Positions 10,052 through 64,000 of a stretch of 64,000 bases of DNA are shown here, piece by piece. Under the pieces are notes generated by a model. The model was given only the letters and a program-made list of their open reading frames with translations. It was not told the DNA's origin and ran no database searches. Within the stretch, counting starts at the first letter, position 1. Each line of letters opens with the position of its first letter. This DNA comes from an uncultured Bacilli bacterium (lineage in GTDB: Bacteria > Bacillota_I > Bacilli_A > RF39 > UBA660). The translations under genes were made by a program, and so were the position numbers. The stretch spans positions 38,933 through 102,932 of the forward strand of contig CAJUHO010000001.1 in NCBI GenBank assembly GCA_910586195.1. Direction: 5' to 3'.

Positions 10052-11002
10052 ATGATTGTACAAATAATACTATTAATCGTAGGATTTATTATTTTAATTA
10101 AGGGGGCAGATATTTTTGTAGATGGTGCTAGTGGAGTTGCCAAAAACTTTAAGGTATCTAAGATGCTTATCGGATTAACCATTGTTGCTTTTGGAACTTC
10201 AGCACCAGAGTTTGCAGTAAGCATTAAATCTTTGTTAAAAGGAAGTGGAGATATTGTCTTAGGAAATGTAATAGGAAGTAATATTTTAAATATTTTGTTA
10301 ATTTTGGGAATATCTGCTATGGTACATGCTTTGAGTGTAAAAAATAATACAGTAAAAAAAGAACTGCCTATTACTTTGCTTATGACTACTGTGTTTTCAG
10401 TATTATTATCGGATCATATCTTTGATTCTAAAATTACGAATGCATTTACTAGAAGCGATGGAATTATTTTGTTATTATTTTTCTTAGTGTTTATTTATTA
10501 TTTAATCTCTGTTATGCGTAAGAAGGTTGATGATGACAGTGATGGTGAAACAATGCCACTAGTAAAAGCATTCCTGTTTACTGTTGTGGGTATAATTTCT
10601 ATTATTTTAGGAAGTAATTTGGTGGTAGATTCAGCATCCTTTATTGCTACAGAAATGGGAGTAAGTGAGAGACTGATTAGTCTTACGATTATTGCTTTAG
10701 GAACTTCTTTGCCAGAATTGGTTACTTCTGTTTTAGCAACAAGAAAAGGAGAGTATGATATTGCTATTGGTAATGTTGTTGGTAGTAATATCTTTAACAT
10801 TGGAATGGTAATTGGTTTGCCTGTTACTTTGTTGGGGGGCATTTCACATTTAACATTTAATAGTATTGATTTGATTGTAATGATTATCTCGGCAATATTA
10901 TTGTTCTTATTTTCTTTTAAAGATTATAAGATTTCTAGAAAAGAAGGATTCGTTTTTTTAACATTGTTTGTTGTATATTATAGTTATGTTATTTTTAGTT
11001 AG
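10052..11002 (+). CDS. CaCA-family (YrbG-like) Ca2+/Na+ antiporter
   Basis: About 10 TM segments and two alpha-repeats, GNVIGSNILNILLILG and GNVVGSNIFNIGMVIG. RBS GAGGAGGAAG. Confidence 0.85.
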   Translation: MIVQIILLIVGFIILIKGADIFVDGASGVAKNFKVSKMLIGLTIVAFGTSAPEFAVSIKSLLKGSGDIVLGNVIGSNILNILLILGISAMVHALSVKNNTVKKELPITLLMTTVFSVLLSDHIFDSKITNAFTRSDGIILLLFFLVFIYYLISVMRKKVDDDSDGETMPLVKAFLFTVVGIISIILGSNLVVDSASFIATEMGVSERLISLTIIALGTSLPELVTSVLATRKGEYDIAIGNVVGSNIFNIGMVIGLPVTLLGGISHLTFNSIDLIVMIISAILLFLFSFKDYKISRKEGFVFLTLFVVYYSYVIFS

Positions 11003-57772: not shown

Positions 57773-58366
57773 ATGAAACCACAAACACAAAATCAAAAAA
57801 AATTATTTATAGGGTTAATTATTGGAGCAGGAATTAGTATTCTTTTAGGAATTGTTATTATGGCACTATTATCTAAAAATAATAAAGAATTAGTGACGAA
57901 CACTATCACCGCTTTTATGAGTCAAGTAAAAAAAGGAAATTTAAATTATCAGCAGGCGATTATACAAAGTCTTATGCAAAATAGTATAGAATGTATTTTA
58001 TTATTCTTTTTAGGAATGTCTATTATTGGAATACCGATAACACTTTTTTTATTCTTTAGTCATGCGTTTGTCTTAGGATTTTCGATGGTTAGCATTTTTC
58101 ATGTATATAAATGGAAGGGAATCTTATTAGCTCTTATTTATTCATTACCACAAGTTCTTAATCTTCTAATCTTACTTGTTTTCTGTTACTTTTCTTTACT
58201 TTTTTCTAAATATTTATTTTATCAATTATTTTTAAAGAAAGATATTTCCTTTAAAAGAATCATGAACCGTTATGTAAAAGTATTTGGGATATGTTTTGGA
58301 CTATTATTAATAAGCAGTACTATAGAAATATTTTTAGTTCCTAAAATTTTAAAATTTATTTTATAA
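57773..58366 (+). CDS. spoIIM: stage II sporulation protein M-like (DUF95) membrane protein
   Basis: About 197 aa with 5 TM segments and topology and size typical of SpoIIM. Assigned by architecture and sporulation context. Confidence 0.55.
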   Translation: MKPQTQNQKKLFIGLIIGAGISILLGIVIMALLSKNNKELVTNTITAFMSQVKKGNLNYQQAIIQSLMQNSIECILLFFLGMSIIGIPITLFLFFSHAFVLGFSMVSIFHVYKWKGILLALIYSLPQVLNLLILLVFCYFSLLFSKYLFYQLFLKKDISFKRIMNRYVKVFGICFGLLLISSTIEIFLVPKILKFIL

Positions 58367-61191: not shown

Positions 61192-61959
61192 ATGAAAGAA
61201 CTAAATGACATCTTAGTAGAACTAGGAATTTCGAAAGTTCGGTTAGCAAAATATTTAGGAGTATCAAGACAAATGCTTTATAATTATTTAGCACTTGATT
61301 CATTAAATGAATGGCCTAAAGAAAAATCTGTTAGATTACTAAGTTTATTAAATATTAAAGAAGAAGAAGAAATCAAGAGTTTAAATGTTAATGGTGATTA
61401 TATCATTGAAGTAGAAAGTCGCTTAAATGAAGGTGTTAAAGATTCTTCTAATCGTGAAGTTATTGCTGATTTGAAAGGATTTAATAAAAAGGAACAAGAA
61501 GTATTATCAGATATTATTAACTTATTAAAAGAAAAATTAGCGGAAGATAAAACAAAGGATACATATACTACTTATTGTTATTTATATCATTATTTGCAAT
61601 CTATGGAAACGGCAAATGAACTTAAATATATTTTAGTGTATATGTCAAAATCTTTAGGATTTACTCCTGTAGATGAATATGCCTATAATAAGGACAAACA
61701 GTTTATATTAGAAAGTATAATGTTCTCTGCCATGACCCTATATAATAATGGTGGTACATCTAGAACAAAAATTGCTGAAACACATAAACGTTTTGAACAA
61801 GATATAGAACATAAAAATGAAGAGAAATTAAGTCGTACTCAGGAATTAAATTCAGCTAAAATTCAGGCTTTAAAAGAATTAGGATATACTGAGATTAATG
61901 AAGATAATGCAAAAGAAGTTTTAGAGAAAATAGCTGAAATTCAATCAAGGAAAGTATAG
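61192..61959 (+). CDS. HTH-domain protein (unknown C-terminal domain)
   Basis: LGISKVRLAKYLGVSRQMLYNYL is an HTH at the N-terminus, with about 200 aa of unrecognised sequence after it. Confidence 0.55.
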   Translation: MKELNDILVELGISKVRLAKYLGVSRQMLYNYLALDSLNEWPKEKSVRLLSLLNIKEEEEIKSLNVNGDYIIEVESRLNEGVKDSSNREVIADLKGFNKKEQEVLSDIINLLKEKLAEDKTKDTYTTYCYLYHYLQSMETANELKYILVYMSKSLGFTPVDEYAYNKDKQFILESIMFSAMTLYNNGGTSRTKIAETHKRFEQDIEHKNEEKLSRTQELNSAKIQALKELGYTEINEDNAKEVLEKIAEIQSRKV

Positions 61960-62060
61960 TAATTAAGGGATTCATATCTATTTATTAAATTAGTAAATAT
62001 AGTGATCCTTTTTTATTTTACTTTCTTTTTTCAACTTCCTATAATATATACTAAAAGACC

Positions 62061-62276
62061 CTAATTGGAGTCTTTTTTTCTTGTGACTATTTTTCTAACT
62101 TCTTTTCCGATTTCTTCGTTTGTCATTTCTAAAGCTACTGCTATTTTTCCAAAAGTATCTATTAAGGGCATGTTTAAATTATTTTCAATTCTAAATATAG
62201 TTTTTCTATCTAAATTTGTAATATCTTCAAGCTTTTCTTGAGATATTTTTTTTCTTATTCGATATTCTTTTAACAT
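62061..62276 (-). CDS. XRE/Cro-C1-type repressor (71 aa)
   Basis: MLKEYRIRKKISQEKLEDITNLDRKTIFRIENN is the HTH. RBS AGGTGA. Divergent from the phage-like module. Confidence 0.8.
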   Translation of the reverse strand: MLKEYRIRKKISQEKLEDITNLDRKTIFRIENNLNMPLIDTFGKIAVALEMTNEEIGKEVRKIVTRKKDSN

Positions 62277-62299
62277 TTAATCACCTGTTTATAATGTAG

Positions 62300-62372
62300 C
62301 AAGTTTGCCTCAAAAAAACATTGACAAGTATGCCCCAATTATGTTACTTGTTATATGAGGCATGTTTGCCCA
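62300..62372. promoter_or_regulatory. three reiterated operator-like boxes in the divergent control region
   Basis: CAAGTTTGCCTCA (62300-62312), CAAGTATGCCCCA (62325-62337) and CATGTTTGCCCA (62361-62372). The second overlaps a TTGACA hexamer (62321-62326). The third forms TGAGGCA-TGTT-TGCCCA. Confidence 0.5.
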
Positions 62373-62441
62373 TTTTCAAATCACAAAAGAAAGGAGGTGT
62401 ATACCTACCATTTCAAAGTGATTTGAAAAAATATTTGAAAT

Positions 62442-62530
62442 GTACTAATAGCTTAACTGGATAAAGCTTGCTCACGTGTGCGCAAACGGGAAAGGTGTCG
62501 TTGATGTAGGTTCAAATCCTACTTAGTACA
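62442..62530 (+). other. tRNA-like element (degenerate tRNA or possible integration-site remnant)
   Basis: Perfect 7-bp acceptor stem (GTACTAA/TTAGTAC), a D-arm (GCTT-AACTGGATA-AAGC), and a canonical T-arm (GTAGG-TTCAAAT-CCTAC). The 38 nt between the D and T arms cannot form a 5-bp/7-nt anticodon arm. Confidence 0.45.
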
Positions 62531-62562
62531 AAAAAATTTACACGAAAGGAGAGTGTCAGAAA

Positions 62563-62730
62563 ATGGATGTAAAAGCAACATTAAAAGACGGTGTAAGTAA
62601 GTCTGGAAATGCATATAAGTATGTATCAATCATGTTAACAGATACATTAGAAAAGAAAGTATTTCTAGATAAAGCGGAAATTCAACTATTGGAATTAAAG
62701 AACAAAGAAGTAAATCCGTTTAGAAAATAA
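62563..62730 (+). CDS. hypothetical 55-aa protein (phage-like module)
   Basis: Below the ORF-track cutoff. ATG 62563 lies about 8 nt after AAAGGAGAG. Sequence MDVKATLKDGVSKSGNAYKYVSIMLTDTLEKKVFLDKAEIQLLELKNKEVNPFRK. The stop overlaps the next start (TAATG). Confidence 0.5.
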   Translation: MDVKATLKDGVSKSGNAYKYVSIMLTDTLEKKVFLDKAEIQLLELKNKEVNPFRK

Positions 62731-62945
62731 TGCGAAAAATTATAGTTTACTATAATCCTAATCGTGATTGTTACTATTTTCGTACAGTTCGTTGTTATTA
62801 TCGTAATTATGAAGTGGGCGAGAAAAATCAATATGGACATGAAGTTATATTAATTATTGATATTGATGTATTAACCTCAAGTTCTATGTCATTTAAAGAA
62901 AAGCTAATAACAAGATTTATCTTGTTTTTAGAAAGAATTAAATAA
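62730..62945 (+). CDS. hypothetical 71-aa protein (phage-like module)
   Basis: Start coupled by TAATG to the upstream ORF. No motifs. Confidence 0.5.
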   Translation: MRKIIVYYNPNRDCYYFRTVRCYYRNYEVGEKNQYGHEVILIIDIDVLTSSSMSFKEKLITRFILFLERIK

Positions 62946-62965
62946 GAAGAAAGGAGATGTACTAG

Positions 62966-63190
62966 ATGTTTCTAGCTAGATTATTTCAAGTAGGAGAAAC
63001 AACAGCAGGAAGTGTTGATTTTACTGTTTTGTTAGACGCCTTAAAAAATTCTATTACACCCGCACAAGTATTAGGGGTATTAGCCGCTGTAATCGGTGTT
63101 GGTATGGTGTTTTTCCTAATGTGGTTAGGTGTACGTAAGGCAATCACTGCTTTCACTTCATCACTTGCCAAAGGAAAATTAAGAATTTAG
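62966..63190 (+). CDS. inovirus major-coat-protein-like 74-aa protein
   Basis: RBS AAAGGAGA. Polar/acidic N-terminal part, one hydrophobic helix (VLGVLAAVIGVGMVFFLMWLGV), and a basic tail (RKAITAFTSSLAKGKLRI). A strong terminator follows immediately. Confidence 0.5.
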   Translation: MFLARLFQVGETTAGSVDFTVLLDALKNSITPAQVLGVLAAVIGVGMVFFLMWLGVRKAITAFTSSLAKGKLRI

Positions 63191-63195
63191 TATCG

Positions 63196-63218
63196 GGACT
63201 TTATAAAAGTCCTTTTTT
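63196..63218 (+). terminator. intrinsic terminator immediately after the coat-like gene
   Basis: GGACTTT-ATA-AAAGTCC followed by TTTTTT. Confidence 0.7.
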
Positions 63219-63235
63219 GATAGGAGATGATAAAA

Positions 63236-63967
63236 ATGATAAGTTATAATGCATGCCGAGAGTCAATAAACCCAAAGCGTGTATGGGATTTAATCAAGTA
63301 TAAGTTTAAATTTATGAGAGAACACCCTGACTATTTTAATCCTGACGGATTAGTAGTATTTACAGGAGCTCAAGGAACAGGGAAAACACTATCAGCCGTA
63401 AATTATGTCGAAAATTTATTAAGAGCCTATCCTAAGGCCATTTTGGTGACGAATTTAAGCCTTTCTCACTTTCCCTTTGATGGAGACCGTGTCTACTTCT
63501 TTTTGGACGGAGATGACCTTTCTAGGTACGAAAACGGGGAGTATGGTGTTATTTACTTGATAGATGAGATACAACTATATTTTAATTCTTTGCAATCTAA
63601 AAATATCAATCCTGATGTTATGGTACAAATCTCACAACAGAGGAAACAAAGAAAACATATTGTTGGAACTTCTCAAGTATTTGGTCGAATGGCTAAACCA
63701 TTACGAGAACAATTCTCAAGTGTTGTTGTTTGTAAAAAACTATTAGGCTTTATTCAATTTAATAAATTGGTTGATCGTGATTCGATAGGGGAGAATGATA
63801 ACGGAACAAGCTTAAAGGGAGAAGTAATAAAACGCTTTTTCTGGTTTCATTCTCCTAAAGATTATGGAAAATATGACACATATCATGTCATACAAAAAAA
63901 TAACTTCGTAGCAGAAGAAGAGAAGAAGGTGGGTATTTATGGCACTGAATTATCAAGTTGTCGTTAA
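63236..63967 (+). CDS. Zot/pI-like P-loop ATPase (filamentous phage assembly protein-like)
   Basis: Walker A FTGAQGTGKT, then VTNL, Walker B VIYLIDEIQ, and QRKQRKHIVGTSQ. These parallel the Zot family pattern (G.PGSGKS, vTNi, iDEaq, hRH.g.Di.l.TQ), recalled from memory. ATG 63236 lies 9 nt after AGGAG. Confidence 0.55.
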   Translation: MISYNACRESINPKRVWDLIKYKFKFMREHPDYFNPDGLVVFTGAQGTGKTLSAVNYVENLLRAYPKAILVTNLSLSHFPFDGDRVYFFLDGDDLSRYENGEYGVIYLIDEIQLYFNSLQSKNINPDVMVQISQQRKQRKHIVGTSQVFGRMAKPLREQFSSVVVCKKLLGFIQFNKLVDRDSIGENDNGTSLKGEVIKRFFWFHSPKDYGKYDTYHVIQKNNFVAEEEKKVGIYGTELSSCR

Positions 63968-64000
63968 TCTAGTATGCAACGTTATGATGATTGCATTTCC

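Follow-up and report, generated by a model that had tools for sequence, protein, structure and literature searches.

A probable filamentous prophage at the dif site of an uncultured gut Bacilli bacterium

We analyzed a 64,000-nucleotide stretch of DNA from an uncultured low-GC gut Bacilli bacterium (contig CAJUHO010000001.1, positions 38,933 to 102,932; hereafter the window) and found at its 3' end the first 1.97 kb of an element that measures 5195 bp between the starts of its two attachment (att) sites. The best explanation, and a very probable one, is that this element is a filamentous (inovirus-type) prophage of the order Tubulavirales, which carries the gene set of a single-stranded DNA (ssDNA) phage and is integrated in an Xer-dependent manner at the dif site of its host. 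A preliminary description of the window had proposed an inovirus; our analysis supports that interpretation, and each of the results that it had named as able to overturn it, from the identity of the ATPase to the nature of the downstream genes, came out in its favor.

To read past position 64000, we used L023, a 43.7-kb contig from an ENA gut assembly, which matches the window at 10750 of the 10765 overlapping bases and is identical to it over positions 61732-64000. Because the two sequences are identical in the overlapping part of the element, the right part was read from L023. The mapped features are listed below, in window coordinates and with strand unless stated otherwise.

62034..62061, +: attL, the left prophage end, a hybrid dif (ACTTCCTATAA-TATATA-CTAAAAGACCC)
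62053..62076, no strand assigned: hairpin terminator behind the repressor gene (terminator scan, - strand)
62061..62276, -: XRE-family repressor, 71 aa, divergent from the structural genes
62300..62370, +: three operator-like repeats CAWGTWTGCC, at 62300, 62325 and 62361 (motif count)
62373..62429, +: perfect 12-nt inverted repeat in the leader, TTTTCAAATCAC / GTGATTTGAAAA, whose arms are 33 nt apart; also present in L116, a free circular relative
62442..62530, +: tRNA-like cloverleaf that has a long extra arm but lacks a usable anticodon loop
62563..62730, +: p55, 55 aa, tentative candidate for an ssDNA-binding protein
62730..62945, +: p71, 71 aa, an ORFan of the phage group, whose ATG overlaps the p55 TAA as TAATG
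62966..63190, +: p74, 74 aa, candidate major coat protein
63195..63222, +: intrinsic terminator directly behind the candidate coat gene
63236..63967, +: Zot/pI-like morphogenesis ATPase, 243 aa
63939..64000, +: start of p47, a 47-aa hydrophobic protein cut by the window edge (complete in L023, 10704-10847)
L023 13994-14021 (window-equivalent 67229-67256): attR, the right end, a full dif (ACTTCCCATAA-TATATA-TTATGTTAACT)

From left to right, the element reads attL, the XRE repressor (- strand), an operator/promoter region, the tRNA-like element, p55, p71, p74 with its terminator and the Zot/pI-like ATPase, and then p47, p160, p382, p91, p90, p44, a nick-site hairpin, a RepB/pMV158-type initiator and attR. 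The starts of its twelve open reading frames (ORFs) overlap or are closely spaced.

Gene content and replication module

The 243-aa ATPase, which the preliminary description had likened to Zot/pI, matches Pfam Zot (PF05707) at 25 bits against a gathering cutoff of 20.3, with generic AAA families all below their cutoffs, and its best PHROG is number 197 ("Zot-like", 1.4e-8). Neither Pfam nor PHROG returned an IstB/DnaC, coupling-protein or terminase match, the identities that would have spoken for something other than a phage morphogenesis gene. The protein contains a Walker A motif (GAQGTGKT), a Walker B motif (YLIDEIQ) and a QQRKQRKHIVGTSQ block, and an alignment with 13 relatives keeps GxQGxGKT, LIDEIQ and QQRKQRxHIxxTSQVF. 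A tblastn search of 50,697 phage records matched 20, all but one of them labeled Inovirus sp. (8) or bajarodino virus (11), at 48-55% identity over 56-92% of the protein except for the weakest few. The matched records are mostly 4-6 kb long; the two that we opened are circular, and their matched genes are annotated as Zot or ATPase. An alignment-based search found further relatives on 42 IMG/VR viral contigs, mostly of 4-7 kb.

An upstream in-frame ATG at 63227 would lengthen the ATPase to 246 aa, yet in public gene calls the protein begins at the second ATG and has 243 aa, and no exact-protein record holds the longer form. The ATPase gene overlaps that of p47 by 29 nt (63939-63967) in a different frame, an arrangement kept in the related contigs L002 and L005. 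We suggest that p47 may supply the membrane segment that the ATPase is without, or that the two may be joined by frameshifting.

The same-strand ORFs of 55, 71, 74 and 243 aa and the TAATG overlap noted in the preliminary description are all present. Within this group p74 is the candidate major coat protein: its layout and position agree with that role, as do its strong Shine-Dalgarno sequence and the terminator that follows the gene. It has an acidic, variable N-terminus, a hydrophobic segment at about residues 29-60 and a basic C-terminus (RK...KGKLRI), and an AlphaFold2 (AF2) model (pLDDT 82) places helices at residues 20-29 and 32-68. Its homologs form 77 clusters of 61- to 80-aa proteins, many on contigs of 4.6-6 kb, and their alignment shows a variable N-terminus, (V/I)DFS..ALT.SITPAQVL, an invariant core VLAAVIGVGMxFFLMWLGV and a basic tail RKAT.AFT...GRIRI. 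Seventeen of 26 family members match phrog_2186 ("virion structural protein"), the best at 5.4e-5. The coat-like layout seen in the preliminary description is borne out; the tie of p74 to a named coat family is weak, the window protein itself matching phrog_2186 at E 0.03. The strong terminator reported behind this gene was found as a hairpin at 63195-63213 followed by a T-run, one of two such sites in the region (0.7 expected), and a similar hairpin and T-run stand behind the coat homolog in both prophage copies of L005.

The two genes ahead of p74 are less readily assigned. AF2 predicts three strands and a helix for p55 (pLDDT 80). Foldseek ranks the Ff gene V protein first, though without significance (E 0.37, TM 0.30), and an hhalign comparison covers only 16 columns, in which KATLKDGVSKSGNAYK is paired with QFTTRSGVSRQGKPYS, the DNA-binding wing of gene V protein (E 0.025, probability 1.9%); these models and alignments are at most a hint that p55 might be a gene V-type ssDNA-binding protein. 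For p71, neither Pfam nor PHROG gave a family match, and its homologs form one cluster among 5.8 billion proteins.

In L023, the element continues with the membrane proteins and the initiator that the preliminary description had expected beyond the window edge. The p160 protein is a membrane protein with a C-terminal anchor; p382 combines an N-terminal signal peptide with a C-terminal anchor, the layout of the pIII adsorption protein; p91 is multi-pass and pVI-like; and p90 and p44, the latter with an N-terminal hydrophobic segment, follow. Rep, a rolling-circle initiator of 220 aa in L023, matches Rep_OBD at 134.5 bits and RepB_C at 26.3 bits, just under the cutoff of 27.3, and has an HYHV motif. 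Upstream of rep lies a hairpin, GGGGGG-TTACTACGACA-CCCCCC, that carries TACTACGAC. Its loop matches the published nick sequence of pMV158, TACTACG/AC, which is likewise located on a hairpin loop (PMC5030251).

Family searches of the element ORFs returned no head, tail, terminase or recombinase match, in line with the earlier remark that no integrase is visible. The gene map of L023 shows no tail, capsid, terminase or conjugation/integrative and conjugative element (ICE) genes in the element; instead of tailed-phage or ICE genes, host genes come next. Neither the gene map nor the protein layouts indicate a secretin gene in the element.

The divergent 71-aa XRE repressor of the preliminary description is confirmed by Pfam HTH_3 (E 4.6e-10) and by a PHROG transcriptional repressor match. 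Its best NCBIfam match is the RstR family, that of the CTXφ repressor, below that family's cutoff. In the circular form, as reconstructed from the junction, the terminator behind the repressor gene would also end the convergent rep. The reiterated operators are likewise real: three copies of CAWGTWTGCC lie within 70 nt, as compared with 0.23 expected per 64-kb window, and they flank and overlap a TTGACA box (62321-62326) of the presumed rightward promoter.

From this gene set a life cycle can be proposed. Rep would nick TACTACG/AC within the hairpin loop to start rolling-circle synthesis of + strands, which would then be coated and extruded across the membrane by an ATPase-driven assembly machine; since the host has no outer membrane, a secretin would be unnecessary. 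In a lysogen, the repressor would keep the rightward operon off. Integration would proceed by recombination between attP and the chromosomal dif at the terminus, catalyzed by host XerC/XerD, with no recombinase of the phage's own. The element would then be an IMEX (a mobile element that integrates by making use of Xer) of the TLCφ or gonococcal-island type.

Ends at dif and competing explanations

The ends of the element were located via relatives: L005 holds two diverged tandem prophage copies that are bounded by three copies of one dif-like repeat. The matching att repeat sought since the preliminary description exists, and it is chromosomal dif. The full dif at attR differs at three of 28 positions from B. 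subtilis dif, printed as ACTTCCTAGAATATATATTATGTAAACT (PMC3025954). In attL, the XerC-type arm and the center come from the host, and the other arm is degenerate non-dif sequence derived from the phage. Both sites have the exact 11-6-11 dif architecture and share 17 nt of identity. The attP deduced from them, ACTTCCCATAA-TATATA-CTAAAAGACCC, would have a good XerC-type arm and center and a degenerate XerD arm, with a predicted junction ...GAAACTTCCCATAATATATA|CTAAAAGACCCTAATTGGAGTC; the predicted empty site reads (255-aa gene flank)-ACTTCCTATAATATATATTATGTTAACT-(G2P fragment flank). In the reconstructed circle, the crossover falls at the 3' end of rep with a stop codon directly after it, giving a Rep of 199 aa that ends ...SHNIY*.

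The full dif marks the replication terminus. GC skew is positive over the whole window (0.07-0.34) and, in L023, is +0.28 and +0.19 to the left of the full dif and -0.18 and -0.11 to its right; gene orientation flips at the same point, and the 3' end of the window lies about 3.2 kb from dif and the skew switch. The skew and the distance to dif together indicate that the window is the last 64 kb of one replichore. A 300-aa recombinase encoded 2 kb to the right of dif is the host XerD (TIGR02225, 331.2 bits against a cutoff of 329.6). Because the skew changes sign at dif and xerD is only 2 kb away, we infer that integration was carried out by the host Xer recombinases.

Relatives show that the site is shared and that its occupants vary. 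L116, a 5149-nt contig, is circular, as its 30-nt terminal overlap indicates. Its identity to the window element is 92.8% over the stretch that begins with the tRNA-like element and ends with p91; it has no repressor, and its Rep is a different one, of G2P type. Immediately to the right of the full dif lies a truncated 169-aa G2P-type Rep ORF (L023 14023-14532, - strand; window-equivalent 67258-67767) that is 95-97% identical to the 3' part of the L116 rep, indicating the remnant of a second, oppositely oriented inovirus at the same dif and thus an array. In other strains, represented by L035, L036 and L040 (L040 1629-6698), an identical 255-aa flanking protein adjoins a different inovirus at the same site. 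This alternative occupant shares the repressor (or has an Arc-type one), the tRNA-like element, p55, p71 and the Rep family, with the same gene sizes and order, but has another morphogenesis module in an Ff-like order, in which a 221-aa Zot-like ATPase follows the pIII-like gene. Yet another variant occupies the site in L039.

Tandem dif arrays also occur in metagenome-assembled genomes (MAGs) of other Bacilli (L005 2716-13268, L002 8523-18153 and L001 108-5383). These relatives lie in the opposite orientation, and what their repeats retain is the center with the XerD arm (TTGATATTATGTTAACT), the mirror image of the window element. By contrast, a relative with 56% ATPase identity (L011 8783-16673) has a gene for a 301-aa tyrosine integrase of its own and is flanked by two copies of tRNA-Lys(CTT) that are 99% identical, indicating that integration routes differ within the clade.

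Several points weigh against a functional, Xer-integrated filamentous prophage. Virions, ssDNA and excision of the element itself are predicted from sequence, and the coat and pIII-like assignments rest mostly on layout. For p74 there is no match to a Pfam coat family and no meaningful PDB match by sequence profile or Foldseek, an outcome to be expected for a single helix, and the 243-aa ATPase has no transmembrane segment, unlike Ff pI. The evidence for Xer in this host consists of XerD. Through integration Rep gains 20 residues and might be impaired by them. An empty dif site was not recovered for the host species, and the predicted circular junction is not in IMG/VR or JGI metagenomes; the carrier samples (for example ERZ14651019, ERZ14651011, SRR27283358 and SRR15730553) are ENA and Logan assemblies, outside those scans, so this second null is uninformative.

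The altered Rep C-terminus and the failure to find the element's own circular junction in the IMG/VR and JGI scans would also fit a defective, domesticated inovirus remnant, fixed at dif and no longer producing particles, as would the base identity of the element across several independent assemblies and the adjoining truncated Rep fragment of another phage, which indicates that decay occurs at the locus. We nevertheless regard such a remnant as unlikely: the twelve ORFs, the nick hairpin, the repressor and the operators are all intact, a relative at 93% identity exists as a free circle, and the site is polymorphic among strains with an identical flanking gene, which points to recent turnover. 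The prophage may still be active today.

Integration without Xer, with the dif-like repeats reflecting a target preference of Rep-mediated or homologous recombination, seems quite improbable. HUH Rep proteins can catalyze strand transfer, the role of Xer here is itself deduced, and the 17-nt identity of the sites could allow homologous exchange; yet the exact 11-6-11 architecture sits at the GC-skew switch, 2 kb from xerD, and the Rep nick sequence is not present at the junctions. The same dif also serves relatives whose Rep is unrelated (G2P in L116) and whose orientation is opposite, with the XerD arm retained, and relatives outside dif are found in tRNA-Lys with a tyrosine integrase of their own. 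Least plausible, and very improbable, is a non-viral reading as an integrated pMV158-family rolling-circle plasmid with a Zot-like ATPase, which has in its favor a plasmid-type Rep and nick site (Rep_OBD, RepB_C, TACTACGAC) and a size of about 5 kb that suits small Gram-positive rolling-circle plasmids, but against it the lack of mobilization, resistance and copy-control genes, a filamentous-phage-type module (small single-pass proteins, a signal-peptide/C-anchor protein and the Zot ATPase) that takes up nine of the twelve ORFs and is conserved in viral contigs of 4-7 kb and in deposited inovirus genomes, and the occurrence of the same structural module with a G2P-type Rep in L116, which indicates that Rep is exchangeable rather than core.

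The surroundings of the prophage are those of a host chromosome. The 255-aa protein on its left (window 61192-61959, + strand) has an N-terminal helix-turn-helix (HTH_7, 26 bits) and no other family match; in several species (L002, L003, L005, L009 and L010) its place is always beside dif at the XerC arm, and it is a host gene consistently linked to dif. Genes for SpoIIM and an SpoIVB-type S55 peptidase lie a short way upstream (window 57773-58366 and the L023 flank), and a DUF1540 gene lies just past the phage remnant. A spore-forming host is plausible but unproven, consistent with these flanking sporulation genes.

The tRNA-like element of the leader

The leader of the structural operon contains a tRNA-like element that scores 44.7 bits with Rfam RF00005 (cutoff 29) and has the conserved D- and T-loop elements of a tRNA. 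ARAGORN labels it "tRNA-???" with 2- or 4-base "anticodons" in place of a 5-bp stem and 7-nt loop. In the predicted fold, a 5-bp extra arm accompanies a stunted "anticodon" arm, a short irregular hairpin whose 4-nt loop lies inside the palindrome CACGTG; the corresponding hexamer is CCATGG in L008 and L011. Because no anticodon stem and loop is present in either analysis, the element is tRNA-like and not a decoding tRNA.

Homologs occur in L116 (2219-2307), L040 (2008-2096), L001 (742-821), L008 (8296-8383) and L011 (14921-15008), and also in L035. A covariance model run on 70 sources added only L039, whose copy is truncated, and L010, where the match is marginal at 19 bits. Across three lineages, five of seven acceptor-stem pairs and two of five T-stem pairs are changed on both sides, and such changes total nine, as compared with 3.4±1.3 in shuffled alignments (0/500) and 1-3 in slid controls, a count that comes from five sequences only. 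This covariation is suggestive, but not conclusive, of a conserved fold. Neither ARAGORN nor the covariance model found the element in the 42 IMG/VR relatives, indicating that it is confined to a few lineages rather than being clade-wide. A scan of IMG/VR for the D-loop/T-loop motif gave 71 loci, none of which encodes an inovirus protein; the ten checked by ARAGORN are ordinary tRNA genes, mostly on large contigs, and the motif alone is unspecific.

The position of the element also varies: in L011 it follows rep and precedes a terminator. It could serve as an origin for the complementary strand on ssDNA or as a packaging signal, as an RNase P/Z processing signal, or as a tRNA mimic. We rejected it as an att site, as it is internal to the prophage and kept in the free circular L116, and the true ends are dif. 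Upstream of it, the inverted repeat at 62373-62429 could form a regulatory leader hairpin. This repeat encloses a AAAGGAGG box and a 9-codon reading frame (62397-62426), which we set aside as a gene, because no spacer separates its Shine-Dalgarno-like AGGAGG from the start codon.

Our search of the literature turned up no inovirus described as carrying an element of this sort. A broader proposal, which we offer tentatively and as a joint claim, is that Firmicute inoviruses form dif IMEX arrays with attP of two designs that mirror each other, the XerC arm alone being kept in one and the XerD arm alone in the other, and that a subset of them carries a conserved tRNA-like RNA/ssDNA cloverleaf, with a non-decoding arm and palindromic loop, as a new functional element.

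Relation to known systems

Phages of this kind are known from gut metagenomes. Thousands of cryptic inoviruses have been cataloged by Roux et al. (PMC6813254), and Billaud et al. (PMC9723715) described 344 inovirus contigs from the viromes of pigs, for most of which a Firmicute host was predicted. The preliminary description was right to see an inovirus-like module but overstated its case in calling it likely undescribed: related Firmicute gut inoviruses are in both catalogs, the 243-aa ATPase is on at least 22 public contigs, and the element is a new member of a known, uncharacterized group. The gut "Inovirus sp." records from pig feces (such as MT135286 and MT135300) and the bajarodino viruses from rodent feces (such as PQ006142) resemble it in being circular and 4-6 kb long, with Zot/ATPase genes at 48-52% identity, a replication initiator, several small hypothetical proteins and predicted Firmicute hosts. 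Those records, however, are free contigs with no demonstrated host or site, whereas the window element is a prophage with a host genome, a dif, a repressor and a tRNA-like element, and the ATPases are only about 50% identical.

In its mode of integration, the element resembles TLCφ, CTXφ and VGJφ of V. cholerae and the gonococcal genetic island of Neisseria, which likewise have no integrase, use dif and form multi-element arrays, although Xer use is deduced here. The attP of TLCφ and difGGI keeps the XerC arm and center and has a divergent XerD arm (PMC5357621), the same configuration as in the window element, and the repressor, with its distant similarity to RstR, adds a CTXφ-like point. The window element differs from the Vibrio and Neisseria IMEXs in its Firmicute host with a CodV/RipX-type Xer, in proteins that are unrelated except for the Zot ATPase fold, in its pMV158-type Rep, and in having relatives at the same dif that keep the XerD arm, the opposite arrangement.

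According to a 2026 preprint, only B5, Philemon and CAK1 have been characterized among filamentous phages of Gram-positive hosts (10.64898/2026.07.11.737922). The element shares with Propionibacterium B5 and Philemon (Paulinoviridae) and with Clostridium CAK1 a small genome with no secretin gene (10.64898/2026.07.11.737922). The host of B5 is a high-GC actinobacterium, unlike that of the window element, and the search of phage records brought up no similarity to B5; CAK1 cannot be compared, since its genome was never sequenced (PMC9723715). With Ff phages (M13/fd/f1), the element has in common a terminator behind a small helical coat gene, an ATPase of pI type, a pIII-like protein bearing a signal peptide and an anchor, minor proteins that are small and hydrophobic, and replication by rolling circle. 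It differs from them in gene order, in a 243-aa ATPase without membrane segment or periplasmic domain, in having no pIV secretin, in another HUH Rep family and in being temperate, which Ff is not, and significant similarity is confined to the ATPase. With the pMV158 RepB replicon, it shares Rep_OBD and RepB_C and TACTACGAC in the loop of a G/C hairpin; here, however, the replicon serves a phage genome, and neither plasmid ssoA/ssoU nor copy-control genes were recognized.

Two aspects appear to be new: integration at dif in a Firmicute, and a phage-borne tRNA-like cloverleaf that is conserved but does not decode. We know of no earlier dif/Xer-hijacking phages outside Proteobacteria; for bajarodino viruses and Firmicute IMEXs we found nothing usable in the literature, and the novelty is our impression.

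Gut viromes hold hundreds of uncultured inoviruses with no confirmed host, and this locus links one of them to a specific host genome, together with a full map, a replication origin, a repressor switch, an integration route and an exact prediction of the attP junction. It suggests that Xer/dif hijacking, known from Vibrio and Neisseria, operates in gut Firmicutes, and that different inoviruses replace each other at the chromosome terminus and exchange replication modules. The tRNA-like element may bear on complementary-strand priming or transcript processing in such phages.

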